DNA of 46,979 nt, taken from the IMG/VR virus record IMGVR_UViG_3300011338_000704, positions 1 to 46,979 of that record. One strand, 5' to 3'. A model generated the notes under the pieces. It was not told the DNA's origin and ran no database searches. It saw only the letters and a list, made by a program, of their open reading frames with translations. Shown piece after piece: positions 871 through 41,522 of this stretch. The stretch's first letter is position 1. Every line of letters begins with the position of its first letter. Source of the stretch: a virus. Lineage: Duplodnaviria > Caudoviricetes. A program made the translations under genes and the position numbers.

Positions 871-926
871 GGCGGGCTCCAGAAGGCCGCCCATGTATGA
901 CGGCAAGGGGGTTGCTTCGCTAGACC

Positions 927-3900
927 CTACTGCCGCGAGGCCTCGCTGGGGGCTCCGGTAACAGCGCCGCGCACGGCGTCGAGCGGATCGGTCGGGACCA
1001 CGTCGCCCTCCATCACGTCGATGCCGTAGCCCAGCGGGCGGTTGAGCGCGCCGACGGGGATGCCGATGGCCAGGCCCATCAGGGTCAAGGTGTCCTTCGC
1101 GGTGCGGCTCCAGTCACCCTCGCCAGCCATGAGCTGGGCGATGTTCTTCGGCGTGCGGATCGCGCTGTCGACGGCGCTGACGCCCGGCGACAGCGACAGC
1201 TTGTCGTCGAACGGCTTGTCGTTGAAGGCGTTGGCGCTGGCGTTGATCGCCGGGCCGACCACGGGGACCATCGCCGTCGCGCCCCGGAACTGTGAGCCCA
1301 CGAACCAGTCCAGCCATTCGTCCAGCCACCCGTCGTCCTCGTCGTCGGCGATCTCGCCGCGCAGGGCGATCTTGATGGCCTCGGCCATGAGCGCGGGAAC
1401 GGCGAAGCCCATCATGTAGACCCAGGCCAGCCGGGCGTAGTTGCGGTCGCGCAGGGCCTGGCCGCCCTCCGTCAGCAGCAGGTTTGACTGCATGTTGAAG
1501 TAGCTGGCGAACTGCGTGAACAGCCGGGCGATGGCCGGGCCGCTTTCCCACCGGCTCATGTCCTCCGGGTTGAGGGAGCCCTGCGTCTGGCGGATCACGG
1601 CGTCGGCGCGCTTGCTGGCCTCAACGTCGGTCGCGCCGCGCTCCAGCGCCTCACCGTGGGCCCCAACCCAGACAGCCGTGTCGACCACGTTCTGGAGGGC
1701 GTGCTGGAGGAAATAGGCGTGCTTGCCGACGAACTGGCGCGTGGCGGTGTAGAGGTTCGGCCGCAGGAGGATGGCCTCGATCCCATAGGCCGCCTCCATC
1801 GTCTGGGCCGACATGCGCTCCTTCATCATCGGCGAGGCCTCCGCGATGGCGGCGGCGGTCTCGGCGGGCGACGTCATCATGGTCACCAGGCCCTTCGCCA
1901 GCGACGTCGGCTTAACGAGCGTCGCCGCCACGGTGAAGCCGGTGAGCTGCTGGAGCGCGTTGACCACGTTGCCGAGCATGGTCTGCTGGCCGGTGCGCGA
2001 GCGGATCGAGGCGAAGAACCTGTCGCCCAGCTTGCCGCCCAGCCCGCGCGTCGGCGTCTGCACGATCTGGCGCGAGGTTCGCTCCAACCACGGGATCAGC
2101 ATGTCGGTCATGGCGGCCGGGTCATGCTGGCCGAGCGGCTCGCGGACGTCGCTGTGCATGAGCAGGCGGCTGGCGTCCTTCACCGGGGCGGCCAGGTGCG
2201 TGAACATGGCGACCTTGTCGAGGTGCTGGGCCAACAGGCGAAGGTCGAGGGCCAGGGGCTTGGTGTAGTTCTCGACGCGGCCCTTCGTGAAGCCGCGCGG
2301 GGTGGTCGGGAACATGGACGCCCCGCCGCCATCCACGGCGCTCTCGATCTCGGCGCGCAGGCCAGCGTCGACGACCTTGGTGGGATCGGCGAGGGCGGGC
2401 ACATAGCCGCCACGGTAGGGGCCGAACGGGGTCTGGACCTCGTTGGCCGTCACCTCGTCGAAGTAGCGGCCGACGATCTTGCGGTGCGCCCGCTGGGCTC
2501 CCGGCTTGGTGCTGTCCAGCAAGTCCCAGACGGCCTGCGCGAAGTCGAAGTCGGCCTTGGTCAGGATGCCCTCGTCGGCCATCCGGCGGATCATGTTGTC
2601 CCACGGGCCGGTCTGCATCTCGCCGTTCTCGTCGAGCTGGACCCAGCCGCCTTTGCCCGACCCGCCGAGCAGCAGCTTCCGCTTGTTGCTCTCGTTGCCG
2701 GTGTGGAGGATGGCGTGCAGCAGCTCGCTCTTGTCGGCGAAGACGTGGCCCAGCTCGGGCGCGCTGATCTTTTTCCAGGTCAGCGTCGGCCGGATCATTT
2801 CGAGCAGGGCGGCGTAGCGGGTCCGAAGGTCGCCAGACAGGGCGCGGTAGTCGTCGGCGGCGGCGCTGATCGGACGCCACAGCAGGCGCGTGAACGGGCC
2901 GACCGTGCCGCCGTCCATGCGGCGGGCCCAGCTTTCGACCCGGCGGATCGAGTTGCGGATGCCTGCTGCGCCACGCAACAGTTTCTCGCCGTCGCTGGTG
3001 CTGGTGGTGGGCTCGAAGCCGCCGGGCATTTTCGACACGGCGAAGATTTGCTCGCCCAGCTCCAGCGCCGCCGCGTCCAGCTCCATGACGCGACCCTCGA
3101 TCTCGATGGTCTTCAGCTTGCGCGACAGGGCGTAGAGAGACTTGACCGTCTCGGCCAGGCCCCGGAACTCGTTGAGGGTCAGGCTCTCCAGCGTGCGGGG
3201 CTGGGTGGGCAGCAGCGCCAGCACCTCGGGCTCCAGCATGGCGGCGGTCTCGGGGTCGTATTCGCGGATCATCGCCATGTAGGCCAGCGGGTTCTGGCTG
3301 GCCTTGCCGACCCCGTAGGCCGCCAGGATCGCGCGGGCGGCCATGACGTAGTCCATGTTGCGTGCAGCGGCCACTCGGTCGGCCTTGCCGCCGACGACAC
3401 GGCCGAACAGGTTTTGGCCCTTCTCGACCTCCTTGGCAGCGGCGCGGGATACGGTCCAGGCGTGGAAGGCCACAAGCTGGCGGAACTTGGCTTGCGCCGC
3501 AGCGGTCAGGTCTTTGGCGCGGAAGGCCCTCTGCGCCTCGTTGGCGGCCCTGCGCTCATTGGCGAGGTGGCGGTCATAACCCGCCAGGTCTTTGATGGTC
3601 CGGTCCTCGGCCTGACGCTCGGCGGCGGCGCGCAGGCCCTTGAAGGCCGGGCGGCCCTGAAGGTGCTCCAGCTCCAGCTCGATCAGCCGCTGCTGGCTGA
3701 CGTTGTGGACGGCGTCGGTGGCGACGTCGGGCAGGGTGCCGTCGGTCATGGGGTCGCCGTACCGCTCCAGCATCCGGCGATCAGTCTCCTGCTCGACGGC
3801 GTCGGAGCGGCGCGGCTTGCCCTTCCAGTCGTCGAACAGGGCCTGACCGCTCTCGAAGCCGAACAGCTCGGCGGCGAAGTCGGGATGGACCCCCTCGGCG

Positions 3901-6900
3901 GCGTAGACCTTGCCGAAGCTGGGCGGGAACGCCTTGAGCTGGTCGGCCCCGTACTCGCTGACGATGATGGGCCGCGACAGCTTGAAGGGCTCAAGGTCGG
4001 TCGGCTGTTCCGCGCCGATCCACTTGCCCCGCGACAGCCAGTCCAGCGCCTGGTAGCCGGGGTCTTCGGCCAGCTCGGCCGCCACCTCGGCGCGGACGCG
4101 CTCGCGCTCGCCCCGATACCACGCCTTCTGCTCGCGGCTGACGGCGGCCATGATCTCGCGGGCCGCCTCGTCGTCGGCGTCGGCCTTCGCCCGGCGGGCT
4201 ACGGTCTGGTAGGCCTCGGCCAGAACCGGGTCCATGCCTGCGCTGGCCGGGTCGGCGAACAGGGGCTCTAGCCCCTGCATGGCGCGGGCCTCCTCCACCT
4301 CCGACTGGCTGGCCAGCAGCCGGTCGAAGACGCTGCGGACCTCGTCGGTCACGTCGAGGCGGCGGCCACCCATCTTCGCGTAGGCGGCGACCATCCACAC
4401 GCGGATGCGGGAGAACTGGCCGCGCAGGCGGGGGGCTGGGGCCACGCCCTCGTAGAGGTATTGCTCGTAGGCCTCGGCGTACATTTCGTGCTCGCGGCGG
4501 CCAATGTCGTCGACCGTCGGGACGTTGAACCAGCCCAACAGGTCGTTGACCATGTCGACCATCAGCGGCGTGGCGGTGCCGTCGCGGACGGTCGAGATCA
4601 TCGCTTCGAGGAAGAAGTGCGCGCCCTCATGCAGGGCTGTGGTCAGGTTGCGGTCGACGAACAGGTTGACCGTCGAGCTGACGCCCTTGCCGAAGTTGGC
4701 GCGGTCCATCTGGATCGAGCCGCGACGGATGCCGGGGCCGCCGCCGTCTTCGCGCTGGGCCAGGGTGGACGGGTTGGCCGCCTCTACGCGCTTGCGCGCG
4801 GCGTCCTGCGCCCGCTGCGTGCGGAGCTGCTCGAGCCGCTGGGCGGCGCGCTCGAGGTGTCGCCGGAAAGTAGCTTCATCAATGCCCGATCCTTCGGGGC
4901 TCGTCGCGTCTCCGACACCTCCTGTTGAGCGAGGAGCGCGTCCACGGCTTCCGAGATTTTCGAGTTTGTCGCCATAGCCACCCTCCCGCAGGATTTTGCT
5001 GTAGATGCCGTTCAGGAACAGTAGCGCGAAGTCGGGCGTGTCCCCAATGTCTTCGTGCGTCAGCCCGCCAGCGGCGAGGATATCCTTGGTCGTGGCGGTG
5101 CCGCCAGCCTTGTCGCGGTTGACGTACAGGGTCCGCGCCCACGACCACACCGTCTCCTGAACCTCGGCGGGGGTCCAGGCCTCACCCAGGCGCTTCGAGA
5201 CGATCTCGGCCGCCTTGCGGACCAGCGCGTTCATGGCGATGTAGCCAGCGCCCTTGCCGGGGGTCTGGCCGGTCTTGCTGAACATCGCCTGATCGACCAG
5301 CGCGTAGTTGGCCATCCAGGCGTCGTTCGTCACCTCATCTACCACGCCGACCAGGTTCAGCATGAAGCTGTTGACCTTGGGACCGGAGAGCTGAATGTCG
5401 GCCGGGGCCTCCGTCGTCAGCGCGGTGACGGAGTTGTTGATCCACGAAGGCAGGACGCTCTCGACCGTGCCGGTGCCTTGGACGTTCTTGCCCATCAGGT
5501 CGACGATCTGATCCCGGTCGGTGGGGCGACCAGCCTTGTCCCACGCGGTCCACACACGCAGGGCGTTGGCCAGGTTGTCCTCGACCGACGTCTGGGGGGA
5601 CAGCGCCGCCAGCAGCGCAGCGAAGCGCGGCGCGTCCTCCAGACCGAACACCTCCAGCAGGGCGTTGGCGCTGTCCTCGTACCAGCCGCGCTTCGCCCGG
5701 CCGGAGAAGGCAACACTCGCCATCTCCTCGGCTGCAGGCAGGTCGCTGATGATCTTCATCATCTTCGCGGCGGTGTCTTTGCGGAGCTTCGCCTTCTCGT
5801 CGGGCTTCAGGTAGCGCAGCACCCGCTTTAGGCCGGGGACGGTCTTGGCCAGCTCTTGGGCCTTGGCGTTCACCTGGTCGTTCGTGGGCTCGGTGCCGCC
5901 CTCCCGCTGGAACAGCGTGAAGCCGCCACGGGCGGCGTCGGCGAGGGCGGGGGTGATGGTGAAGCCGGGCTGGGCGGAAACCTCCTGAAGCGCCTCGTCT
6001 GCGGCTTGCAGTTGATCCAGCCGGGCCGCGTTGGTCTCGCCAGCTTGCAGCGCCTCGCGGAAGGCGGCGCGGGCCGCCGTGCTTTCCGGGGGTCGGGGCC
6101 CGTTAGGAACCTTGACCAACACGTCCGCAACCCTCACCCCGTACTTCTTCGTCAGGTCATTGACGATGTTGACCAGGTTCCGCCCGTAGAAGGCATTGAG
6201 CCCGGCCCGCTGCTCGGGGCTGTTGGCGAACACGATGGGGCCGATCTGGTCGCCGGTCGTCCATGCGATCCGGTCAAGGTTCTGGTCGACGGCGTAGCGG
6301 ATCAGGCGCTTCATCACCAGCGCGGGCCAGCCGGTGCGGAAGGGGGCGTCGGGGATGCCACGCGCCAAGCGATCAAGCTGCTGGTCGACCTCGGACACGC
6401 GCAGGTTCGCTTGGGCGAGCGCCGCCTCAACGGCGGGGTTGCCCTCGGGCCGCCTCAACACGCGCCGGGCAACGTCCAACTGGTTGCGATAGGTGAGCTG
6501 GGCGAAGGAGCCAGAGCCCCCCAGAATGTAGGTCGCCTCCTTCTGGATTTCCGCCGAGAAGTCCCGCTGGGAAACTTCCATGACAGCGCGCTCGGCTTCG
6601 ATCTGAAGGCCACGCGCCACCCGGTAGTTTTCCTCGGCTTCCGCGCGAGCCTCTTGGCTGGCCTCGCTCCGATACCCCTGCTCCCGCCCCTTCTGGTGCC
6701 AGTCGCTCTGCACCTCCTCGACGAACAACACCCGGTTGCCCTCGGCGTCGGTGCGGATCGTGGTGCGAGCGTGGGCAGCGACATTGGATTGATCCCAATG
6801 CGTGGCCGGGCCGTCGATGTTGGGCAGGCGGAACAGCAGCTCGCGGTAGGTGTCGTCAGCGCCGGGGAGCTTGTAGCGGGAGAACTGCGTGGCGCGTTGG

Positions 6901-9900
6901 GCGGCCTCCTCGGCGGCCAGCTCGGCCTCCTCCCGACTGTCATAGTCGGTGTCGTCGTAACGCTCCTCGCTGAAGGTCCGCAGGCTGTAGGTACCGTCGC
7001 CGTTGTCATAGACCTGGTCCGCGCCGTTGGTCGCGCCGCCGCCCAGCTCCAGCACCTCGACCGCCACGCCGTTGCTGTTCACGAACGCCAGCAGCGCCTC
7101 GCGCTCGACCGGCCCCTCGATCCCCGCCAGCCAGTCGAGCACCCCGCTCCACTCCAGCTCCTCCTTCTTGACGCCCGGCGTCTTCTGGAGCGTGGCGATC
7201 CACTGGGCGGCCGGGGCCTTCTTGGTCTGGGCCTGCTCGATGGCGCGGCCGAGCCCGCTGTAGAAGACGTCCTCCTGGTAGAAGGTGGTCTCGCCGTTGC
7301 CCTGGTAGTCGGCGGCCAGCCGCTCGAAGACCACGGCCACCATCTTCAGGTTGGCGTGGCGGCTCCAGTAGCCAGCGTACCCGGCGTCGGCGATCACGCG
7401 CTCATAGGCCGAGCCCCGCTCGGCGCGGGACCACTCGCCGCTCTCGACCAGCTCGACGACCTTGGCCTTCAGGCCATCGGGGTCGGCGTCGAAGTCATAC
7501 AGGCGGTCGGCCTCGATGCGGGCGGTGTAGCGGTGAGGGCCAAGGCCGTCCTCGCGCTCGTAGCCCCACGGCTGGCCGACGTCGACGCCGTAGTAGGTGC
7601 GGCGGGGCACGTCGTCGTTCTCGACGGCGTTGCGCTCCTCGCGGGTCAGGATCGTGGCGTTGTCGCCCCAGCGCCGGGGGTCCAGCGCCTTGAGGTTCTT
7701 GCGGCGGCCCCAGTGGGTGAGGGTTACCCGTCCGTCCGGTCCCGCGAGGGGCTCAATTCGCGTTGCATCAGGTGCAAGGCCTTGGCCTTCTCGAAGGCGA
7801 TTATACTCTCCGAGGAGCGCGGCCTCTTGCTCGCGGTAACGGCCTTCGCGGTCGGATCGCTCTTGGAGTTGGAAGACTTCACGAAGCACCCATTGCGGCG
7901 CGAGGAACGCCTTTTGATCGGAGAAGCGCCGGTCGGCCAGGCCAACATAGTCGCTGTCGCCCCGTTTCGGAAGGGTGCCGTCGGGACGGCGCAGGTGCTG
8001 GCCGTAGTTGACCCAGGCGTTTTGCATCAGGGTCTCGGCCGCCACGGCCGGGAGGGCCGCGTCAGAGAACATGCTCGCGTGCTCAAGGAAGGCGTTAAGC
8101 TCGCCCTTGGGGCCGAAGCCCGCGCCGCCCGTGGTGTGGGCGAAGACGTCATGCACGATGCGGAACAGGTCGTTGACCAGCAGGGGCGTCCCGTTGCTGT
8201 CGGTCAGCTCGGTCTCCCGCAGGAACGGGTGGTTCATGTCCTCCGGGTTTCCCGCGCCGAAGCTCTCGCGCTCGGTCGGCAGGAAGTAGAAATGGCCCCG
8301 CAGCAGGACGTCCTCGATCATCGCCGTGCTGTTCGGATAGGGCTCGCCCGTGCCGTTCCAGCGTTCCAGCACCAGGTGGCCGACGATGAAGTGGGCCTGC
8401 TCCTCGACCTCGCTGGCGGCGGCCTCATAGGAGGCGATCACCGCCGGGTCGGTGGGCTTGCTGATCTGCGCGTCGAACTCGTCGGCGAAGCGCATCATCA
8501 TGCCCTCGTCGGGCTCGACGGGGGCGAGGGGGGCTTCGCGCGTGCGTCCGAACTTGGCGCGGTAGGCATTGGCGAGGACGCGGGTGGTGGGGTTGGGGAG
8601 AGCGTCCAGGTAGCGGCCAGACAGGTCGGTCGGAGCCTTGACCACATGCCCCCGGCCACGCCTCACGTCGCGGGTCAGGTCGGGGAAGATGGCGCGGCGC
8701 GTTTCGCCGTCCATGTCCAATCGAGCTTCGGCGGTGTTGCGTGCCTCAATCTCCCCCTCGGAGCGGAAGTAGGTGTCGTAGACCGCCTCGCCCATCCCCT
8801 CGATCCGCTTGCGAGCTGCGGCCTGCTGGGCGGGCGGATAGGTCGCCACCATGTCGTTGATCGTGGCGTCGAGCGCCTCGGCGTAGCCCTGGCGGCGCAA
8901 CTCGGTCTCGTTGGGACCGGCCCCGCCAGCAAAACCCTCCAAGGCTTGGATGACGTGCTGCACCTCATGCAGGATCGTGGCGATGGGACCGTCGACCGTC
9001 TGCCGCTGGGACACGGCGATCTCGCCGGTCGAGGGATCGAACGCCCCAAGCGAGCCCTTGGGCATGGCCTCGGCCAGGATCGGAATGTTGCGGAGCTTGG
9101 GGTAGGCCGCGAACAGGGCTTCGTGCTCCATCACGTCGCCAAGGGTCAGGGGCGGCTCTTTGGCCAGGGCGATGCGCTCGTCGCTCGTCCGCAGGCGCGG
9201 GTTGGCGACGAGCTGCTGGCGCATGTCATCGCGGATGAAGCGATCCAGCGCGTCGGGCTTCATCACCGCCTGGCTGTCGTCGATCTCGAAGCGCCATTGC
9301 TGATCGGGGCCGCGTATCCAGCCGGTGTCCTTCCAGATTTGCTCGGGGCTGGCGTCCCGCTTCTCCAGGAGCTGGGCCACGCGCAGCTTGCCCATGTCGG
9401 CGGTCAGCGCCTTGCGGCCAGCGAACTGGTCGAAGGTCTCGCCGCCCGGTCCCATCTCGGGGGCCTGCGGGCCGTCGGGGATCGGGGTGTCGGCCGCGCC
9501 GGGACCGGCCACCATCTGCTCGCCGCCAGCAGCGGGCGCGTCCACGCCCTCGAAGGTGGCGAACAGGTTGGCCTTCACCTCGGCCACGGTGCGAGGGCGG
9601 CGGTCCTTGCCCTTGCCCTCGTAGAAGATGGTCGTGTTGGCGGCGGCGGCGGCCTTCAGCCCCTTCAGGTCGCGGGCGATGGCGTTGTCGTCGGCCTTCA
9701 GCAGGGTCTGCGCGCCGCCGTTGCCGAGGAAGTGGGCGGTGTAAAGCTCACCGGCCGACGGGTCACGGCCGAGCACGCCGCGCAGGAACTTGGCGTTGTC
9801 GGCGGTGAAGGCGCGGAAGGCGGCGGTGCTGTCGGCGGCGTTCGTGCGGCGGGCCAGCAGGGCGCGCTGGGCCTCGTTCACGATCAGCGGCCGACCGTCC

Positions 9901-12047
9901 TTGAACACGATGGAGGCGGCCACAGCCTTGGCGTTGGGGTCGCCCGGCAGGCCATGCTGCTTGATGACGCCGATCCAGGTGGACGCGACGAACTGGTGAA
10001 GCCCCAGCGCCGAGCTGGTCTTCGCGCCAATGCTCGGATTGCCGCCGCTCTCGCGCTTGACCAGCCGGGCCTCGTAGCCGTCGGGCAGGTCTCCGCCCCT
10101 CATTTGAGGGGCCGAGGGACGGCTACCACCCACCCCGCGCTCGGCGTTGATGTTGGGGATCGGGAAGCGGGTCAGCACCTCGTCGATGGGAATGTCGAGC
10201 ACCCGCGCCAGGCCGTAATACTGGTCGACGTAGTTGTCGGCGGTGGTCTCGATCTGGCCGATGGTGAAGTCAGGGTCGGCCGCCAGGCGGGCTCCGATCT
10301 CGCTGCGGAGATCGAGGCGGCCCTTGCGCTCGGCCTCGCTCATGTCCTCGCGCGCCTTGCCCTCGGCGGCCAGGGCCTCCATCACGGTCGGCTTGTTCGC
10401 CGCCGCGTCGGCGGCCTCGGCCGACGTCATCTGAAGGTCGCCGGGGGCGAACTTGATGTGCGGCATGAGGGCCTCGCCCGCAGGCGTCTTGACCACCCTG
10501 GTCAGGTAGTCGGCCATCGGCAGCTTGATCTCGCCGCCCTCTGACAGGGCGCGGGCGACCTCACCCGGCGGCAGGCCCATCTCGCGGGCGGCCTCCTCGG
10601 GGTCGACGTTCTGGCTCTGGAAATACTCGCGGAAGGCCGAGGCGGTGATGTAGACGTCCTCGACCGGGCCGTCGCGGGTCAGGTGCTCGGCGTACTCCCG
10701 ATACTTCTCGGGCAGCTCGGCCTTCAGCTTGCTGTCGGGGCCTTCGCCCAGAGACTTCAGGAACTGCTCGCGGGCCTTGGCCTGGTTGGCGAGCTGCTCC
10801 TGCTGGACCGCCTGATAGGTCGCACCGGGGGCGACGACAGCCGCGCCCGTGATGCCGCCGACGACGCCCTCGTTGAGGATACCCTTGGCCACCTCGACCG
10901 GGTTGTCGCCCTTGAAGTCCACGCCGGTCTTCGCCGTGGTGTCGGCCTGCGCCAGCTTGCCGATGAAATACTGGACGGTCGCCTGCATCCCCTCGGTCGA
11001 GCCCTCATAGAAGGCGGCCGGGCCGAGGCGCTCGACCAGCTCCTGAAGGCCGTCGCGGAACGGCTTGTCCATGAGGAGCTGTTTGATCCGACCCGCGTTG
11101 ATCGCGCCCGGCCGGATGCCCGCGAGCTTCAGCTCCTTCGAGAAGGCGAAGGTGTCGAGGCCGGTGGCGATGACGCCGTAGCCGATGGACGCGGCGCGCA
11201 CCACGTCGACCGGGATGGGGTTGCCCTTCTCGTCGCGCATGGCCGAGAAGTCCTCGAAGGCCTCGGCGCTGTTGAGCTTGAAGCTCGGCCCCATCGAGCC
11301 GACGGTCGCGCCCGTGGAGAAGCCGCTGATCGCGCCCGCGACCGTGCCGACACCGGGGACGGCGGAACCGGCGGTCGCGCCGATCATGCCGCCATCGGCT
11401 GCGGCGGGCAGCGATTGGATGAAGACGTGCCCGCTGGACGGCAGGGCGCGGATCACCTGGCCCGCGATGGATTTAGGGGCGGCCTGCGCCGGGTCTCGGC
11501 TGTTGCGCTTGTCGGTCAGCTCGGCGAGCTGGCGCTCCTCGTCCTCCGACAGGGGCTTCTTCAGAATGTTCTTCTTGTAGACCAGCTCGCTGCGGGTGAC
11601 GTCCTCCATGCCCTGCCCCAGGTAGCGGGGGAAGGACGGGATTTCGCCGATGGTGGTCCGCTCTTGCTCGTCGAGGAACTTGCGGCGCTTGCCGGTGATA
11701 TCCGGCATGAGGAAGCCCAGCACGTCGCGCGTCGACTTCTGCGCCTCGCTCATGCTGGAGACCATCGTTTCCAGCCAGGATTGATGCTCACCGTCGTCGT
11801 GGGATACGGCGCTGTTCTGCGGGTCCATAGCCCGCCATTGCTCAGTCCTGACCGCAGCCTTACGGCGACGGTCTTCCTCGGCCCTACGCGCAGCCAGGGC
11901 TCGCGCTTCCACCAGCGCCTGATCGTAGGTCACCGCCTCGCCCGGCGGGGTCACGGCGACGGCCTGGCGGGCCTGTGGGGGCTCAACGCCGGGGATCGGC
12001 GGGGCGGGTTCCGGCTGGTTCGTCAGCCACGGGTTCTTCAAGGGCAT
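927..12047 (-). CDS. Giant (3706 aa) internal virion/DNA-ejection protein with polyvalent effector domains
   Basis: Position of T7 gp16/epsilon15 ejection proteins; lytic transglycosylase motifs (KRESGG, SSALGLHQF, AHFLG), LPD23-like TGW..GPD..WRFEIDD plus HEVQH, HDVFAH domain, ART-like domain, VKKEEL/EEVQSDWHQ domain, glycosylase-like domain, HEGAH zincin. Start placed at the ATG next to the upstream stop. Confidence 0.9.
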   Translation of the reverse strand: MPLKNPWLTNQPEPAPPIPGVEPPQARQAVAVTPPGEAVTYDQALVEARALAARRAEEDRRRKAAVRTEQWRAMDPQNSAVSHDDGEHQSWLETMVSSMSEAQKSTRDVLGFLMPDITGKRRKFLDEQERTTIGEIPSFPRYLGQGMEDVTRSELVYKKNILKKPLSEDEERQLAELTDKRNSRDPAQAAPKSIAGQVIRALPSSGHVFIQSLPAAADGGMIGATAGSAVPGVGTVAGAISGFSTGATVGSMGPSFKLNSAEAFEDFSAMRDEKGNPIPVDVVRAASIGYGVIATGLDTFAFSKELKLAGIRPGAINAGRIKQLLMDKPFRDGLQELVERLGPAAFYEGSTEGMQATVQYFIGKLAQADTTAKTGVDFKGDNPVEVAKGILNEGVVGGITGAAVVAPGATYQAVQQEQLANQAKAREQFLKSLGEGPDSKLKAELPEKYREYAEHLTRDGPVEDVYITASAFREYFQSQNVDPEEAAREMGLPPGEVARALSEGGEIKLPMADYLTRVVKTPAGEALMPHIKFAPGDLQMTSAEAADAAANKPTVMEALAAEGKAREDMSEAERKGRLDLRSEIGARLAADPDFTIGQIETTADNYVDQYYGLARVLDIPIDEVLTRFPIPNINAERGVGGSRPSAPQMRGGDLPDGYEARLVKRESGGNPSIGAKTSSALGLHQFVASTWIGVIKQHGLPGDPNAKAVAASIVFKDGRPLIVNEAQRALLARRTNAADSTAAFRAFTADNAKFLRGVLGRDPSAGELYTAHFLGNGGAQTLLKADDNAIARDLKGLKAAAAANTTIFYEGKGKDRRPRTVAEVKANLFATFEGVDAPAAGGEQMVAGPGAADTPIPDGPQAPEMGPGGETFDQFAGRKALTADMGKLRVAQLLEKRDASPEQIWKDTGWIRGPDQQWRFEIDDSQAVMKPDALDRFIRDDMRQQLVANPRLRTSDERIALAKEPPLTLGDVMEHEALFAAYPKLRNIPILAEAMPKGSLGAFDPSTGEIAVSQRQTVDGPIATILHEVQHVIQALEGFAGGAGPNETELRRQGYAEALDATINDMVATYPPAQQAAARKRIEGMGEAVYDTYFRSEGEIEARNTAEARLDMDGETRRAIFPDLTRDVRRGRGHVVKAPTDLSGRYLDALPNPTTRVLANAYRAKFGRTREAPLAPVEPDEGMMMRFADEFDAQISKPTDPAVIASYEAAASEVEEQAHFIVGHLVLERWNGTGEPYPNSTAMIEDVLLRGHFYFLPTERESFGAGNPEDMNHPFLRETELTDSNGTPLLVNDLFRIVHDVFAHTTGGAGFGPKGELNAFLEHASMFSDAALPAVAAETLMQNAWVNYGQHLRRPDGTLPKRGDSDYVGLADRRFSDQKAFLAPQWVLREVFQLQERSDREGRYREQEAALLGEYNRLREGQGLAPDATRIEPLAGPDGRVTLTHWGRRKNLKALDPRRWGDNATILTREERNAVENDDVPRRTYYGVDVGQPWGYEREDGLGPHRYTARIEADRLYDFDADPDGLKAKVVELVESGEWSRAERGSAYERVIADAGYAGYWSRHANLKMVAVVFERLAADYQGNGETTFYQEDVFYSGLGRAIEQAQTKKAPAAQWIATLQKTPGVKKEELEWSGVLDWLAGIEGPVEREALLAFVNSNGVAVEVLELGGGATNGADQVYDNGDGTYSLRTFSEERYDDTDYDSREEAELAAEEAAQRATQFSRYKLPGADDTYRELLFRLPNIDGPATHWDQSNVAAHARTTIRTDAEGNRVLFVEEVQSDWHQKGREQGYRSEASQEARAEAEENYRVARGLQIEAERAVMEVSQRDFSAEIQKEATYILGGSGSFAQLTYRNQLDVARRVLRRPEGNPAVEAALAQANLRVSEVDQQLDRLARGIPDAPFRTGWPALVMKRLIRYAVDQNLDRIAWTTGDQIGPIVFANSPEQRAGLNAFYGRNLVNIVNDLTKKYGVRVADVLVKVPNGPRPPESTAARAAFREALQAGETNAARLDQLQAADEALQEVSAQPGFTITPALADAARGGFTLFQREGGTEPTNDQVNAKAQELAKTVPGLKRVLRYLKPDEKAKLRKDTAAKMMKIISDLPAAEEMASVAFSGRAKRGWYEDSANALLEVFGLEDAPRFAALLAALSPQTSVEDNLANALRVWTAWDKAGRPTDRDQIVDLMGKNVQGTGTVESVLPSWINNSVTALTTEAPADIQLSGPKVNSFMLNLVGVVDEVTNDAWMANYALVDQAMFSKTGQTPGKGAGYIAMNALVRKAAEIVSKRLGEAWTPAEVQETVWSWARTLYVNRDKAGGTATTKDILAAGGLTHEDIGDTPDFALLFLNGIYSKILREGGYGDKLENLGSRGRAPRSTGGVGDATSPEGSGIDEATFRRHLERAAQRLEQLRTQRAQDAARKRVEAANPSTLAQREDGGGPGIRRGSIQMDRANFGKGVSSTVNLFVDRNLTTALHEGAHFFLEAMISTVRDGTATPLMVDMVNDLLGWFNVPTVDDIGRREHEMYAEAYEQYLYEGVAPAPRLRGQFSRIRVWMVAAYAKMGGRRLDVTDEVRSVFDRLLASQSEVEEARAMQGLEPLFADPASAGMDPVLAEAYQTVARRAKADADDEAAREIMAAVSREQKAWYRGERERVRAEVAAELAEDPGYQALDWLSRGKWIGAEQPTDLEPFKLSRPIIVSEYGADQLKAFPPSFGKVYAAEGVHPDFAAELFGFESGQALFDDWKGKPRRSDAVEQETDRRMLERYGDPMTDGTLPDVATDAVHNVSQQRLIELELEHLQGRPAFKGLRAAAERQAEDRTIKDLAGYDRHLANERRAANEAQRAFRAKDLTAAAQAKFRQLVAFHAWTVSRAAAKEVEKGQNLFGRVVGGKADRVAAARNMDYVMAARAILAAYGVGKASQNPLAYMAMIREYDPETAAMLEPEVLALLPTQPRTLESLTLNEFRGLAETVKSLYALSRKLKTIEIEGRVMELDAAALELGEQIFAVSKMPGGFEPTTSTSDGEKLLRGAAGIRNSIRRVESWARRMDGGTVGPFTRLLWRPISAAADDYRALSGDLRTRYAALLEMIRPTLTWKKISAPELGHVFADKSELLHAILHTGNESNKRKLLLGGSGKGGWVQLDENGEMQTGPWDNMIRRMADEGILTKADFDFAQAVWDLLDSTKPGAQRAHRKIVGRYFDEVTANEVQTPFGPYRGGYVPALADPTKVVDAGLRAEIESAVDGGGASMFPTTPRGFTKGRVENYTKPLALDLRLLAQHLDKVAMFTHLAAPVKDASRLLMHSDVREPLGQHDPAAMTDMLIPWLERTSRQIVQTPTRGLGGKLGDRFFASIRSRTGQQTMLGNVVNALQQLTGFTVAATLVKPTSLAKGLVTMMTSPAETAAAIAEASPMMKERMSAQTMEAAYGIEAILLRPNLYTATRQFVGKHAYFLQHALQNVVDTAVWVGAHGEALERGATDVEASKRADAVIRQTQGSLNPEDMSRWESGPAIARLFTQFASYFNMQSNLLLTEGGQALRDRNYARLAWVYMMGFAVPALMAEAIKIALRGEIADDEDDGWLDEWLDWFVGSQFRGATAMVPVVGPAINASANAFNDKPFDDKLSLSPGVSAVDSAIRTPKNIAQLMAGEGDWSRTAKDTLTLMGLAIGIPVGALNRPLGYGIDVMEGDVVPTDPLDAVRGAVTGAPSEASRQ
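4784..4975 (-). CDS. Nested overprinted 63-aa ORF (+1 frame) inside the giant gene
   Basis: GGGAGG Shine-Dalgarno 6 nt before ATG; MATNSKISEAVDALLAQQEVSETRRAPKDRALMKLLSG...; host-frame third positions become A/T-rich; the stop depends on a GTA Val codon in the host frame. Confidence 0.6.
   Translation of the reverse strand: MATNSKISEAVDALLAQQEVSETRRAPKDRALMKLLSGDTSSAPPSGSSSSARSGRRTPRASA
7724..7882 (-). CDS. Nested overprinted ~52-aa ORF (+1 frame) inside the giant gene
   Basis: GTG at 7882 (alternative ATG at 7948); MKSSNSKSDPTAKAVTASKRPRSSESIIAFEKAKALHLMQRELSP...; about half of host-frame codons end in A/T; TAA stop again created by a GTA Val codon; SD weak. Confidence 0.45.
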   Translation of the reverse strand: MKSSNSKSDPTAKAVTASKRPRSSESIIAFEKAKALHLMQRELSPSRDRTDG

Positions 12048-12048
12048 G

Positions 12049-13839
12049 TCAGCGCGGCCCACCAGCGAGGCCGGTCGATCCTTTGCGCTTGCCAGCGTAC
12101 CGCTCGGCGAGGTTCTCCCCGCGCACATAGGCCGTGAAGGCCTCCTCGATCTCGCTGGGGGTCATGGTGATGAAGTCCTCGGCCATTGCCCGCTTGAAGT
12201 AGTCGGGAACGCGGCGGAAGGGCAAGGCCGGTTTGCCGTCGGCCATGTTGCCGACGATCTGGCTGGCCCATTCGCGGTCGGGCTTCACGTCGGCCTTCGG
12301 GTCGACCTTGCCGCCGGGCGGGGTCAGGGCCTTCAGCGCCCCGGCGTACAGGTCTCGGTCGCCCGCGTAGAGCTGGCCAGCGTCGGACAGGGCGAAGTAT
12401 TCCTCGCCCTCGCCCCGGCTGGTGATCCGCGCCACGATGGCCTTGATCTGGGCAGGGTTGGGCGGGGTCTTGTTGTCCTCGATCCAGGCGGCCACCTCGA
12501 CGGCGGCCATCGTGCGAACCTGCGCCTCCATCGCCGCCTTCTTCGGCCCCTTGCGCGCCTTGCCGTCGGCCATGATCTGGGCCGTAGCCAGGCTGGCGAT
12601 CTCGTTGACCGCGCCGACGTGAGACTTGCTCGCCAGCTCGGTGCCTTTGTCGAAGCGGTCGAGCAGCTTGATCCGGTCGTCGGGGCTGACCTTCAGGTCG
12701 ATAATGTCCTGGCGGTTGAGCCTGGCAAACTCCCTTGGGTCCATCGTCCGGTAGGCTTGGTAGACGGGGCTGTCGTTGGCGATAGGCGCACTCTCCCAGG
12801 CCACCAGCTCGTCGGTGAAGCCGTACTTGTCGGCGTCCAGCCTGTCCTCGGGGGTGAGCTGCTCGCGGCGGGCCATCTTGGCTTCCAGGCGGTTCTTGAC
12901 CTGCACCGCCTGGTTCTGGGCGTCCCGGCGGTAGATCGACACCCGGCGCTGGTACTGCTCACTGACCTGTTGCGCCAGCACGGGGTCTTTGATCTTGGCG
13001 ATCCCCGCCTCGACGTCCATCGTCTCCCCGCTGGTGACCCACAGGTCGAACAGTTGGTTACCCGCATCGCGCCCTTTGGCGAAGGTGTCCATCTTGGCGA
13101 AGTCAGACTTGGCGCTGGCGTAGTCGACCGGGTTGAAGTCCCGCTTGTTGGCTTCCAGGTAGGCCGCCGCGCCCTCGTAGTCCTGCCGGGCCTTGTATCC
13201 AGACAGGACGGTGTTGTGAACGCCGGTCATGCCGTCACGCACGAAGGCGGTTGCGGCCTCACTGTCAGGGCCGCCAAGGCCACGGCGCTTCGCCAGCCCC
13301 CACAGCTCGGAGCGGGCCGTCGCCACCCGGTAGCCGCGCTCGTTCTCGTCGGGCGACATGGCCGCCACTTGCGCGTCGGTGCTGACCTTCCCGAAGGCCA
13401 CGGCCTCGTCGTACTTGGTCCGCTCGTTCGTCTCGATCCGCGACAGCTCGCCGTTGACCTGTTGGCGTCGGGCCGCGAGCTGGTCGCGGATCATCTGCTG
13501 CTGGCGGCTGTTCTGCGCCGCCCCGGCCACCCGGCCATCGAGATCGTCGAACGCCTTGACCGTATCCGGCATGGCGTCGAGGTAGTCCTTGCCCTGCTTT
13601 CCGACGATGCCGGTCGGGCCGTACTTGAGCTGTAGCGCCTCTTGATCCCAGCTCGTCAGGGCCTCGCGCACGACCGTCTCGTCATGCTCGGCCAGCTTCT
13701 GCTCGGCGAACGCCCCGAGGTTGCCCGCGAGCTGCGCCACGGCGCGGGCCGGGGCGGTGTTGGCGGTGACCTCCTGCACGCCCAGAGGCTGCGTCTGGAC
13801 GCGGTTGGGCTGGTACTGAGGGATGACGGCGCGAGGCAC
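12049..13839 (-). CDS. Internal virion/ejection protein (gp15-like position)
   Basis: 596 aa, helical Ala/Gln-rich, N-terminal MPR..PQY; lies between the small ejection protein and the giant protein. Confidence 0.75.
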   Translation of the reverse strand: MPRAVIPQYQPNRVQTQPLGVQEVTANTAPARAVAQLAGNLGAFAEQKLAEHDETVVREALTSWDQEALQLKYGPTGIVGKQGKDYLDAMPDTVKAFDDLDGRVAGAAQNSRQQQMIRDQLAARRQQVNGELSRIETNERTKYDEAVAFGKVSTDAQVAAMSPDENERGYRVATARSELWGLAKRRGLGGPDSEAATAFVRDGMTGVHNTVLSGYKARQDYEGAAAYLEANKRDFNPVDYASAKSDFAKMDTFAKGRDAGNQLFDLWVTSGETMDVEAGIAKIKDPVLAQQVSEQYQRRVSIYRRDAQNQAVQVKNRLEAKMARREQLTPEDRLDADKYGFTDELVAWESAPIANDSPVYQAYRTMDPREFARLNRQDIIDLKVSPDDRIKLLDRFDKGTELASKSHVGAVNEIASLATAQIMADGKARKGPKKAAMEAQVRTMAAVEVAAWIEDNKTPPNPAQIKAIVARITSRGEGEEYFALSDAGQLYAGDRDLYAGALKALTPPGGKVDPKADVKPDREWASQIVGNMADGKPALPFRRVPDYFKRAMAEDFITMTPSEIEEAFTAYVRGENLAERYAGKRKGSTGLAGGPR

Positions 13840-38159: not shown

Positions 38160-38960
38160 ATGACCCAAGACACCACGCTGGACGATGCCGCCCGGCACTC
38201 CATCGGCGCGAACACCCCGCCCGAGCCCATCGACGTGAAGACCCGCCTGGCGGTCAGCCACCACGCCCTGATCCAGAGCGCGGCCGAGCTGGCGACCAAG
38301 GCCCAGGCCATCGGGACCATCGGCCTCAACGACAGCGCCGCCCTCGAAGACGCGATCAAGCTGGTCAAGGATATCCGCGCCAAGGATGGCGAAGTCGACG
38401 CCACCCGCAAGGCCGAGAAGAAGCCGCTCGACGAGCAGATTGCGGCGGTGCAGGAGTTCTTCACCCCGGCCCAGCGGTCCCTCGCCTCGGCCAAGTCCAT
38501 CGCCGAGCGGGCGATCAACGACCGGAACAACCGCGCCGCCGCCGCCGAGCAGCAGCGCCTGCGGGACGCGGCTGAAGCCGCCCGCGCCGCCTCCCTGGCC
38601 CGCATCGACCAGGCCGACAGCTACGACAAGGAGGGCTCCAGCGCCGTCACCGATGCGCTGGTCGATGATGCCCAGCAGAAGGAGGCCGCCGCCGCCCACA
38701 TGGACAAGCTGGCGACCGGCCCCGCGCAGAACCTGAACCGCGCCGCGACCGCCGCCGGTACGGTGTCCAGCTCGCTGCAATGGGCCTTCGAGATCGCCGA
38801 CGATGACGCCCTGCGCGCCACCCTCGGCGCGCTCGGCCCGTTCTTCACCCCGGCCGATCTGGAGAAGGCCGTGCGCGCCTACATGAAGTCGACCAAGGCG
38901 GCCCCCAAGCCGCTGGCTGGCGTCGTGTTCTCGCAAGTCTCGAAGGTGAACATTCGATGA
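38160..38960 (+). CDS. Coiled-coil protein of the recombination operon (Gp157/Gam-like position)
   Basis: VDATRKAEKKPL...VQEFF motif, long helical region; upstream of RecE/RecT. Confidence 0.7.
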   Translation: MTQDTTLDDAARHSIGANTPPEPIDVKTRLAVSHHALIQSAAELATKAQAIGTIGLNDSAALEDAIKLVKDIRAKDGEVDATRKAEKKPLDEQIAAVQEFFTPAQRSLASAKSIAERAINDRNNRAAAAEQQRLRDAAEAARAASLARIDQADSYDKEGSSAVTDALVDDAQQKEAAAAHMDKLATGPAQNLNRAATAAGTVSSSLQWAFEIADDDALRATLGALGPFFTPADLEKAVRAYMKSTKAAPKPLAGVVFSQVSKVNIR

Positions 38961-39328
38961 GCGACACCGCGATCCTACAGACCATCCCGGCCGACGACCC
39001 ACTCATCGCCACGGTTCGGGCGGCCTTCGATGCGTGGCGGGCTGACAGCCTCGCCGCCCTCCCCAACCAGGACGAGGGCAACGCCAACGCCAACGCCGCG
39101 ATCAACGTCGCCCACAACGTGGTGATCCTGCTGGCCGGAATGGAGCAGCAGGCCGGGCGACCCGACAACGAGGCGGCGGCAACCTGCCTCGCCCACGTCA
39201 TCGCCAACACCTTCAGCCATGCCCACTGTGTGGCCTGCTTCATCGAGACCCTTCAGGGCATTGCCCGCGAGGCGCTCGGCGTGTGGATGCAGGATCACCC
39301 GGCCTCGACCGGGGAGACGGCGCATTGA
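38957..39328 (+). CDS. Hypothetical protein
   Basis: 123 aa, HCVAC, ATGA coupling. Confidence 0.65.
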   Translation: MSDTAILQTIPADDPLIATVRAAFDAWRADSLAALPNQDEGNANANAAINVAHNVVILLAGMEQQAGRPDNEAAATCLAHVIANTFSHAHCVACFIETLQGIAREALGVWMQDHPASTGETAH

Positions 39329-40458
39329 TCCCCGACGGCATATACTTCGGCCTCGACGAGGAGGCCTACCACGCCGACGAGGCGCTCGGCTCGTCGGACC
39401 ACAAGGCGCTGGTGGTCAGCCCTGTCCAGTGGCGAGCGGCGAAGGCCGTCTCGCTCATGGACGCCCTCGGCCTCGGCCCCTCCACGGCCCCGGCCAAGGA
39501 GCAGGAGGTGACCGCGACCAAGGCGGTGGGCAAGGCCTTCGGGGATGCTGTCGACCTGATGGTGCTGACGCCAGACCTGTTCGACCAGCGGTACGTCGAA
39601 GACCCGGAGTGCCCGCCCGAGTACCTGAGCACCATCGACGACATACGGGCGGCGCTGAAGGAGCTGGGGGTCTCGATCTCCCTGCCCCGCTCGGCGAAGC
39701 TCTATGACCATGAGGTGCTGGCCTCCTCCCACGGCCTGAAGACGTCGGCCGACTGGGCGGCGGCCAGGGCCGAGCTGGTCGGCGGGCGTCAGGTGCTGTC
39801 GCGGCGGTGGCTGCACACCCTGCGCTTCATCGACCGGATGCTGGACATGGGCCGTGCCGACTACGGCGGGCGCTCGATCCGCGAGGCGGTGCTGGGGCAG
39901 GGTGTGGCCCAGGTCTCGGTCTTCTGGACCGACGACAACGGCGTGCGGTGCAAGTGCCGCTTCGACTGGCTGCGGCCGGGCCACGCGCAGGACGTCAAGA
40001 CGTTCTTCGCCCGCGAGGGTGACGAGATCGTCGAGGCGTTCTGGAGCGCGGTGGCGCGGTTCGCTTACGACATGCAGGCCGCCCACTACCTCGAAGGCCA
40101 CGCGGCCATTCGGGGCCACTGGGAGAACGGCCGGGTGTTCGGCGACCACGACCCGGCCTTCCTGACCGCCGTGGTGCAGGCGGGCACGCCGACGTGGTCG
40201 TGGATCGGGATACAGACGCGCGGCCTCCCCGAGGCTGACGTGTTCCAGCTCCCGGTCACCGCCCATAGCCTGGTGCTGTCACAGGCCCAGACGCAGATTG
40301 CCGAGGCCCGCAAAGCCTACCTCGAATACGTCGACCGCTTCGGGCTGGATCAGCCTTGGGTGTCGACCCGTGGCCCCATCGTCATGAGCGACGAGACGGC
40401 CGTTAACTTCCTGCGCCGCATGGGCGAGCGCGGGGCCAAACGCTGGAGCGACGAATGA
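39325..40458 (+). CDS. RecE/exonuclease VIII-like PD-(D/E)XK nuclease (DUF3799-like)
   Basis: GIYFGLDEEAYHAD..LGSS, CKCRFDWL, DVKT and YDMQAAHY motifs; TTG start coupled to the upstream stop. Confidence 0.85.
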   Translation: MIPDGIYFGLDEEAYHADEALGSSDHKALVVSPVQWRAAKAVSLMDALGLGPSTAPAKEQEVTATKAVGKAFGDAVDLMVLTPDLFDQRYVEDPECPPEYLSTIDDIRAALKELGVSISLPRSAKLYDHEVLASSHGLKTSADWAAARAELVGGRQVLSRRWLHTLRFIDRMLDMGRADYGGRSIREAVLGQGVAQVSVFWTDDNGVRCKCRFDWLRPGHAQDVKTFFAREGDEIVEAFWSAVARFAYDMQAAHYLEGHAAIRGHWENGRVFGDHDPAFLTAVVQAGTPTWSWIGIQTRGLPEADVFQLPVTAHSLVLSQAQTQIAEARKAYLEYVDRFGLDQPWVSTRGPIVMSDETAVNFLRRMGERGAKRWSDE

Positions 40459-41522
40459 CCGACGAGACCATGACGGCGGAAGCCGAGGCCCCGCACGAAA
40501 CCGTGCAGGCCATGACCATCGTTGACACGGTGGCCGAGGCGCGGCGCAGCGCGGCGCTCGCCCTGATCCCCCTGCCCATCGCCGAGATGGAGGAGATCGC
40601 CCACTTCATGTCGAAGGCGCGCTCGATGGTGCCGCAGCACTTCATCGGCCAGCCTGACGCCTGCCTCGCGGTGGTCTACCAGGCGGCGCGCTGGGGCATG
40701 GACCCCTTCGCCGTGGCCCAGAAGGCCTACATCGCCAAGCAGGGCGGGACCATCGGCTATGAGGCCCAGCTCGTCCACAGCCTGGTGGAGAGCAGCGGGC
40801 GGCTGCAAGAGCCCCTGCGCCTGCGCTATGAGGGCGACGCCCTCCAGCGCCGGATCGTGGTGATCGGCCGGGTGCGCGGGGCAATCGAGGATCAGGTCTA
40901 CGCCTCGCCCCGGATCGTCAACATCAGGCCGCGCAACAGCCCGCTGTGGACGTCCGACCCTGACCAGCAGCTCGCCTACTACGGCGTGCGGGCGTGGGCT
41001 CGGCGGTTCTCGCCGTCCGTCCTGCTGGGGGTCTACACCCCCGAGGAGCTGTCGTTCAACGACATGCTGAACGTCACCCCCAAGGAGGCGGCGAAGGCCT
41101 ATGAGGTGGCCGATCTGCCCGCGCCCAGCGGCGGGGCGGCCTACACTAACAAGGCCCCCGATGCCGTCCAGCAGAAGGGCGAGCAGCGCGGCGGGATGCA
41201 GGAACAGCCGCCGAAGTCACCGCCCCCGCCGCCCGCACCGAAGCCGAAGCCCGCCGAGCCCAACCCGTGGGCGAAGGTCGAGAGCCTCGAGGAATGGTAC
41301 GCCGACTACATGAGCCAGCTTGAAGTCGTCGACAGCCTTCAGGCGCTGGAGCGGCTCGGCCAGCAGGCCCTGCAACACGGCTGGTTCCACAAGCTCGGGC
41401 AGGCCGAGGGCAAGGACGGGCCGATGAAGAAAACCCTGGCCGAGCTGGGCAAGGCGCGGAAGCATGAGCTGTCGGTGAAGGAGGCGGCCGAGGCTGCGCT
41501 GAAGGAGCGGGGCGAGGGCTGA
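40455..41522 (+). CDS. recT: RecT-family single-strand annealing protein
   Basis: QAARWGMDPFAVAQK, GYEAQL, RNSPLW..DPDQQLAY and LLGVYTPEEL motifs. Confidence 0.9.
   Translation: MTDETMTAEAEAPHETVQAMTIVDTVAEARRSAALALIPLPIAEMEEIAHFMSKARSMVPQHFIGQPDACLAVVYQAARWGMDPFAVAQKAYIAKQGGTIGYEAQLVHSLVESSGRLQEPLRLRYEGDALQRRIVVIGRVRGAIEDQVYASPRIVNIRPRNSPLWTSDPDQQLAYYGVRAWARRFSPSVLLGVYTPEELSFNDMLNVTPKEAAKAYEVADLPAPSGGAAYTNKAPDAVQQKGEQRGGMQEQPPKSPPPPPAPKPKPAEPNPWAKVESLEEWYADYMSQLEVVDSLQALERLGQQALQHGWFHKLGQAEGKDGPMKKTLAELGKARKHELSVKEAAEAALKERGEG

Follow-up and report, generated by a model that had tools for sequence, protein, structure and literature searches.

Introduction

Why does a giant phage gene that otherwise prefers G or C at third codon positions lose this preference abruptly at the boundary between two of its domains, and could the loss mark a second, much smaller gene in another reading frame? 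The question arises in a 46,979-base contig, all of which was analysed (the window). The contig stems from a tailed phage with a GC-rich genome, and carries terminase, portal, GP7-type capsid, tail and internal virion genes. An earlier note on this DNA had proposed that a mini-gene is overprinted on the large frame at this place. The features discussed below are collected in Table 1.

Table 1. Position, strand and properties of the features at the locus
Feature	Position	Strand	Remarks
Giant virion (ejection-type) polyvalent protein gene	927..12047	-	3706 aa from ATG 12047; open frame from 12128
HDxxxH domain, phrog_3170-like, no Pfam family	7896..8531	-	Candidate domain by profile matches and model
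Host-frame segment, one long predicted helix	7785..7895	-	Shares bases with the upstream part of the dip and with nested codons 1-5
GTG, alternative start of a 52-aa +1 product	7880..7882	-	Ser/Lys/Thr-rich coil ahead of the helix
GGAG, Shine-Dalgarno-like	7808..7811	-	Six bases upstream of ATC 7801; altered in contigs of X16, X18 and X19
TATAAT	7800..7805	-	Overlaps the ATC start; the window's only copy on either strand; no -35 box
Nested +1 coding segment	7724..7801	-	ATC start, 25 codons, TAA stop; predicted short helix, then polar tail
ADP-ribosyltransferase-like domain	7299..7733	-	Begins where the nested segment stops; Atlas neighbours
The gene's other nested +1 ORF, 63 aa	4784..4975	-	GGAGGG and ATG, TAG on GTA, after DUF7178; homologue in L011

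The host gene and its domains

The gene that provides the host frame of the overlap (product P0001) is positioned after the portal, capsid, tail and internal virion genes. LPD23 and DUF7178 score above the Pfam cut-off in its product, transglycosylase and phrog_9880 are matched as well, and the regions recognized along the 3706 residues are a transglycosylase, LPD23, HExxH, HDxxxH (phrog_3170), an ADP-ribosyltransferase (ART)-like region, DUF7178 and phrog_9880. With several disparate domains, LPD and MPTase types among them, and with its place in the virion module, the product is a polyvalent protein in the sense of PMC5512222; the polyvalent proteins described in the main text of that paper likewise unite LPD23, HExxH peptidase-like, transglycosylase and ART-like domains in one virion-associated protein.

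The segment is flanked by the HDxxxH and the ART-like domain. A sequence search of solved structures returned no relatives of the HDxxxH domain, and this domain also occurs as a stand-alone frame of 220-340 codons in Actinomycetes, Flavobacteriaceae and Enterovibrio (L039-L111, GTDB genomes), again with no Pfam family or solved relative. Atlas neighbours of the ART-like domain are ART-PolyVal (20% and 15% of members; scores 0.94 and 0.93) and an AcrIF11-type ART cluster (81% of members; score 0.90), and the histidine of its strand 1 is invariant in 6/6; the Pfam search gave no hit for it, ART-PolyVal (PF18760) included, and its profile match was weak (hhalign probability 16%). The region made up of both domains is matched by 4495 representatives, and its model, built from 46 sequences, has a mean pLDDT of 87.

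The earlier note had placed the segment in the linker between these domains. It does lie at a domain boundary, but not simply in a floppy linker, as the host frame at 7895-7785 is modelled as a single helix (block pLDDT 80-98) and only 7784-7733 as coil; host-frame function therefore competes as an explanation of conservation. HDxxxH-ART linkers vary greatly among relatives, and other proteins use shorter or unrelated ones. Those before the ART-like domain in P0004, P0047, P0133 and P0140 are rich in G, R, D, Q and E, and have the appearance of a small gene read in its -1 frame.

Two further arrangements in the window deserve mention. The phrog_376 tail family is split into two adjacent minus-strand ORFs (17463-16813 and 16809-14953), the first of which ends with an FCCH-like domain; its stop and the next ATG are 3 bases apart. 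At 38160-41522, exonuclease, exonuclease VIII and RecT-like genes lie on the plus strand of an otherwise minus-strand genome, and their antisense frames form long open shadows.

A coding signal in the +1 frame

The drop in third-position GC is real. Gene-wide GC3 is 0.906, and two deep dips interrupt it, one at 7889-7731, where 25 of 53 host codons end in A or T (gene-wide 9.4%), much as the earlier note had counted, and the other at 5006-4848 (24/53); neither count was reached in 2000 permutations. A mild third dip near the gene start (11927-11769, minus strand; 17/53, p 0.003) comes with no +1 or +2 coding score. After adjustment for residue composition, the A/T-ending host codons are most concentrated at 7802-7725 (15/26, 2.3 expected), followed by 7883-7803 (10/27, 2.9 expected, p 3e-4) and 7949-7884 (6/22, 1.9 expected), and downstream of the +1 stop there are none (0/42). 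Over the nested segment, GC1 of the host frame rises to 0.88 while GC3 falls to 0.42, which speaks for a shift of phase and not for dilution by a low-GC insertion. Read in the +1 frame, the 25 codons from ATC 7801 have GC3/GC2 values of 0.92/0.44, compared with 0.91/0.47 for the gene.

For a codon score, each +1 codon was compared with the host codon on the basis of the gene's own codon usage. Exactly two +1 segments in the gene were picked out, 7801-7732 (20.7) and 4966-4858 (22.9), and the maximum in 300 synonymous shuffles of the gene was 9.0. Among 15 control minus-strand ORFs of the window, 13 had no score of at least 9, and the remaining two were antisense shadows of the plus-strand exonuclease genes.

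The +1 frame is open across this region, as had been claimed, but this means little, since 15 of the 98 +1 stretches in the gene reach at least 74 codons. The stop codon is more informative. The TAA at 7726-7724 is indeed built on a GTA valine codon, and GTA makes up 6 of the 233 valine codons of the gene; of its 97 +1 stops, 91 are TGA and only 6 are TAA or TAG, and both deep dips end in a TAA or TAG built on GTA. The dip is upheld, and codon scoring yields a gene-like +1 part that is shorter than proposed. Together, these data support a nested +1 coding segment at the domain boundary. Its architecture resembles the Rz1 type in that the segment lies wholly inside a longer ORF of the same strand, in another frame, and has a coding signature of its own frame beyond chance.

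Start codon and product

Two starts had been put forward for the product, ATG 7948 (74 aa) and GTG 7882. The first is unlikely, because the best-scoring +1 segment is 7801-7732, and we rejected it: over its first 22 codons, which coincide with the conserved end of the HDxxxH domain, +1 GC2 is 0.73. The second is probably wrong as well, as the signal starts at ATC 7801, although the 52-aa form retains some probability, which we weigh below.

The start of the segment, which was located without bias, coincides with a GGAG six bases upstream and also with an ATG in record 4 of run X18. GGAG, AGGA or GAGG at such spacing from a +1 ATG or ATC is found at 6 places in the gene, two of which are the starts of both segments. 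The window combines a non-canonical ATC with GGAG, and X18 record 4 combines ATG with the absence of GGAG. AUC initiates at 1-2% of the AUG level in E. coli (10.1101/063800).

AlphaFold2 (single sequence) predicts that the 52-aa form is coil followed by a helix at residues 24-43, with pLDDT of about 90. Neither the 25- nor the 52-aa form contains a cysteine or a hydrophobic leader. A match of DUF7169 to the +1 ORF was below the cut-off and was ignored. Of the 20 sequencing runs that carry the region, none is recorded as RNA.

Conservation among close relatives

At the DNA level, five of these 20 runs were compared (for X16, 40 of 155 differences). X18 record 4 (depth 3.1; 27 of 29 differences) has the ATG at 7801 and has lost the GGAG; X16 and X19, the latter of depth 2.7 and from a different study than X18, have one base changed each in the GGAG region; and in X11 there are three upstream changes, of which two leave the host residue and one the +1 residue as it was. 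X18 and X19 share a double change at 7753-7752, which turns a host Glu into Val and leaves the +1 Ser a Ser. Divergence in X18 amounts to 6/78 bases in the core and 26/81 upstream. Since both X16 variants share a single contig over 7519-7792 (depth 77.6, about 50.1 + 31), recombination near 7792 can explain the low core divergence, which we do not count as selection; few of the changes are informative about selection on the nested frame. In X16 and X18, the near-identical sequence below about 7792 is joined to a variant whose HDxxxH domain has diverged (about 81% identity), and P0002 and X11 carry a swapped module upstream of 8598. Modules are still being exchanged.

At greater distance, P0003 (51% identical) could encode the +1 residue at 21 of 26 positions, stop included (Fisher p 0.08), a match that 5 of 195 comparable windows with host identity no higher also attain. 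An encodability scan of 173 proteins singled out P0001-P0003 only. No homologue of the peptide was found by tblastn of phages, in the protein database, in DNA scans of viral contigs or in a search of shorter proteins, and in an all-against-all comparison with 28 nested segments it joined no family. Viral contigs contained no close DNA relatives, and the two metagenome loci were duplicates of L008 and L009, which have both flanking domains and no +1 segment between them. Function of the host frame could also account for the conservation in P0003, and an independent homologue of the peptide was absent from all these searches.

Nested segments in related genes

Among the fetched loci, we collected host frames of at least 700 codons that contain the HD motif; once 5 duplicate loci had been removed, 46 frames (84,754 codons) remained. 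At a score of at least 11, a threshold chosen after viewing the results at 9 and in a test that AT-rich and partial frames weaken, 17 of these frames contain 20 +1 segments, as against 1 in the +2 frame and 0 in five shuffles each. The nested stops are TAA or TAG in 16/20 cases, compared with 181/907 background stops (p 1e-8). Thirteen of the 20 segments end directly ahead of the HD domain, at 127-209 codons upstream of its motif, and many have AGGAG or GGAG with ATG. These sequence patterns support the idea that nested +1 segments are a family-wide habit.

Some of the segments form families. One lies ahead of the HDxxxH domain and behind different upstream domains (L003, L005, L057, L064 and L073); it occurs in phage records and in Paraburkholderia, Polynucleobacter and Lysobacterales genomes. 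A second (L009/L037 and L108, which has the highest score, 41.5) lies behind the same upstream domain and ahead of different domains. High-scoring +1 segments of no clear family, mostly ending just before HDxxxH, are present in L007, L013, L029, L032, L055, L060, L062 and L002, and L054 has a weak unrelated one (9.8) with AGGAG and ATG between HD and ART-PolyVal domains. Identity was higher in the +1 than in the host frame for all 7 of 7 chosen pairs, which were aligned on the +1 peptides, so that the comparison favours the +1 frame. For L057 and L064, +1 identity is 23/33 and host identity 12/33, with 7/6/18 base differences by +1 position, and in such members of the family purifying selection on the nested frame appears clear.

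The window's own pairing with L011 gives barely higher identity in the +1 frame (25/56 vs 23/56). It involves the ORF at 4975-4784, which has an anti-SD pairing of -10.5 kcal/mol and matches L011 with E 7e-9 within the small set of nested segments; both nested ORFs come right after DUF7178-type domains. The earlier note had ranked its ORF at 7724-7948 below this one, and rightly so, as the latter with its GGAGGG, ATG and homologue is much better supported. Its suggestion of one nested mini-gene per effector module finds no support: the gene has about eight recognizable modules but two segments, and 29 of the 46 related frames have none at a score of at least 11. Only the window has a segment of at least this score just after the HDxxxH domain (1/46 frames). 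The putative gene at 7801-7724 is among the weakest members of its class, and may be a nested gene caught in the course of down-tuning or loss.

The preferred reading and its rivals

The segment likely encodes, or once encoded, a helical peptide of 25 residues, and is likely a nested gene that is weakly translated or decaying. Tentatively, and with confidence just short of even, we favour a 25-codon gene whose translation starts internally at the ATC and is weak, and the modelled helix of which would bind a neighbouring domain.

The main rival, which we hold to be rather unlikely, is that a small gene was captured and has left this segment behind as a fossil without translation, its codons persisting because the host frame now uses the sequence. 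The near-cognate start is what one would expect of such a remnant, as is the alteration of the GGAG in 3/4 runs. P0003 has Asn-Arg at the start position, so that an ATG is excluded there, and host identity to P0003 in the core (15/25) is no lower than in the flanks; the helix predicted for the host frame and the absent peptide homologue fit as well. However, fifteen A/T-ending host codons persist in a gene of GC3 0.91, where one would expect a drift to G/C at such positions, the TAA has been kept, and the double change in X18 and X19 preserves the serine.

It is quite unlikely that a real nested gene starts at GTG 7882 and encodes 52 residues with a low-complexity amino-terminal half. The excess of A/T-ending host codons does extend upstream of the ATC, +1 GC3 is 0.81 there, the anti-SD pairing of this start is -6.0 kcal/mol, its region is weakly folded, and Ser/Thr/Lys-rich ends are found in other nested ORFs too. 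Between 7882 and 7802, however, 11/14 changed +1 codons in X18 alter the residue, many radically (27 of 29 differences), and the changes favour host codon position 3 (12/26); P0003 could encode the +1 residue at only 5/16 changed pairs, and the additional part is predicted to be coil.

An internal promoter is very unlikely. The earlier note correctly saw a perfect TATAAT without a convincing -35 box; the hexamer has no second copy in the window, and the four runs list no difference at it. The TATAAT would be the -10 box and the A/T excess promoter sequence, as in Salmonella rhs genes, where internal promoters and a CTG start yield toxins from starts that are in frame, according to the relevant passages of PMC7043789. 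The hexamer 17 bases upstream is AAGAGG, a sigma-70 scan of 900-12200 returned no sites, and the next host-frame ATG, GTG or TTG, at 7613, lies past the first strand of the ART-like domain. Above all, the promoter explains the signal poorly, because the excess affects host third positions alone, continues for 75 bases downstream and breaks off at the stop codon of the +1 frame.

A programmed +1 frameshift near 7800, which would truncate the giant protein so that it ends in the nested helix, is highly improbable. GGAGAG precedes CTT and then a rare CGA codon, an arrangement that we take to resemble the prfB frameshift signal loosely; but the spacing is 9 bases and not 3, X18 changes the CTT, most segments of the family come with an SD and ATG of their own, and RNA folding was unremarkable in 6 stretches (z -1.1 to 0.5). 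A recent foreign low-GC insertion, which the earlier note had set against its own proposal, or chance, is hardly credible: the lower GC of the segment (0.63 vs 0.69), the variable linkers and the mosaic junction near 7792 are outweighed by the shift of phase, by scores that shuffles never reach, and by the segment being shared with P0003 at 51% identity, so that it is not recent.

We also rejected the idea that the nested frames generally serve to restart translation of the host frame where they stop. The host frame has no start codon near 7724, and the 4 TGA stops among the nested segments are all placed under CTG and never under ATG, GTG or TTG (p 0.03), which together disfavour it.

A possible mechanism

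For the low-level translation from ATC that we prefer, we suggest the following model. The direction implied by the term "overprinted" is probably reversed: genome-like codon usage marks the older of two overlapping frames, a criterion set out in the pertinent part of PMC8227390, and since it is the +1 frame that has such usage, this frame is probably the older one. The giant gene would have captured a domain cassette together with a small neighbour gene, and would now read through the latter in the -1 frame. The -1 frame of a GC-rich gene rarely holds stops. Internal initiation on the late virion-gene mRNA would give the peptide in the producer cell, where it would stay and either silence its HDxxxH or ART-like neighbour or hold it in a fold fit for packaging; the giant protein would then be injected without it. 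Some nested families travel with a given domain, which makes a binding partner the preferred function, and the partner could be either neighbouring domain. If the gene is real, restraint or chaperoning of the HDxxxH or ART-like neighbour until injection is possible, if rather doubtful.

A bolder version, which we consider improbable, is that giant injected proteins are cassettes with out-of-frame inhibitor genes. Here, the modelled 25-residue helix would inhibit the ART-like (possibly anti-defence) domain and be dosed down by the ATC; such peptides would silence domains in the producer and be left behind, so that the domains arm only after injection. If the nested frames are translated at all, thousands of phage polyvalent-protein genes would carry unannotated small proteins, and "low-complexity linkers" would be the shadow of a second gene. 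Such nested genes would also suggest, in a form open to test, why ADP-ribosyltransferase and similar domains do no harm to the cell in which the phage produces them.

Comparison with known systems

Embedded same-strand genes are familiar from phages, with Rz1 in Rz of lambda and E in D and B in A of phiX174 as examples. Like these, 7801-7724 would be a small gene inside a larger one, on the same strand, in a shifted frame and on a shared mRNA, with the internal initiation that we propose here. Unlike them, it lies in the gene of a multidomain virion protein of 3706 aa, genome-like codon usage is found in the nested frame, and the predicted product has 25 residues, no Cys lipobox or membrane segment and a near-cognate start. 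In the Rz/Rz1 spanin pair, a lipoprotein with a Cys lipobox is nested inside the gene of an inner-membrane spanin, within the lysis cassette; a spanin pair can be rejected for our locus, as the peptide is without cysteine or hydrophobic leader and the host is a virion protein.

Embedded phage genes as such are already known, and it is nested genes in polyvalent virion proteins of which our literature search found no description. The search and the main texts of PMC5512222 and PMC13434306 contain no report of them; in the main text of PMC5512222, the words "overlap" and "linker" never occur, and no passage deals with nested genes.

A toxin-immunity pair with consistent linkage to an effector is rejected as well: a segment follows the domain in 1/46 HD-bearing frames (and weakly in L054), and none is present in L008 and L009. 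In Rhs-CT/RhsI, as described in the relevant passages of PMC7043789, the immunity gene follows the toxin stop and Rhs-CT is in frame, whereas 7801-7724 lies out of frame in the middle of a gene. What our locus does share with these toxin-immunity cassettes is a small ORF adjoining an effector-like domain, a cassette-like exchange of domains and, with ATC as the probable start, near-cognate initiation.
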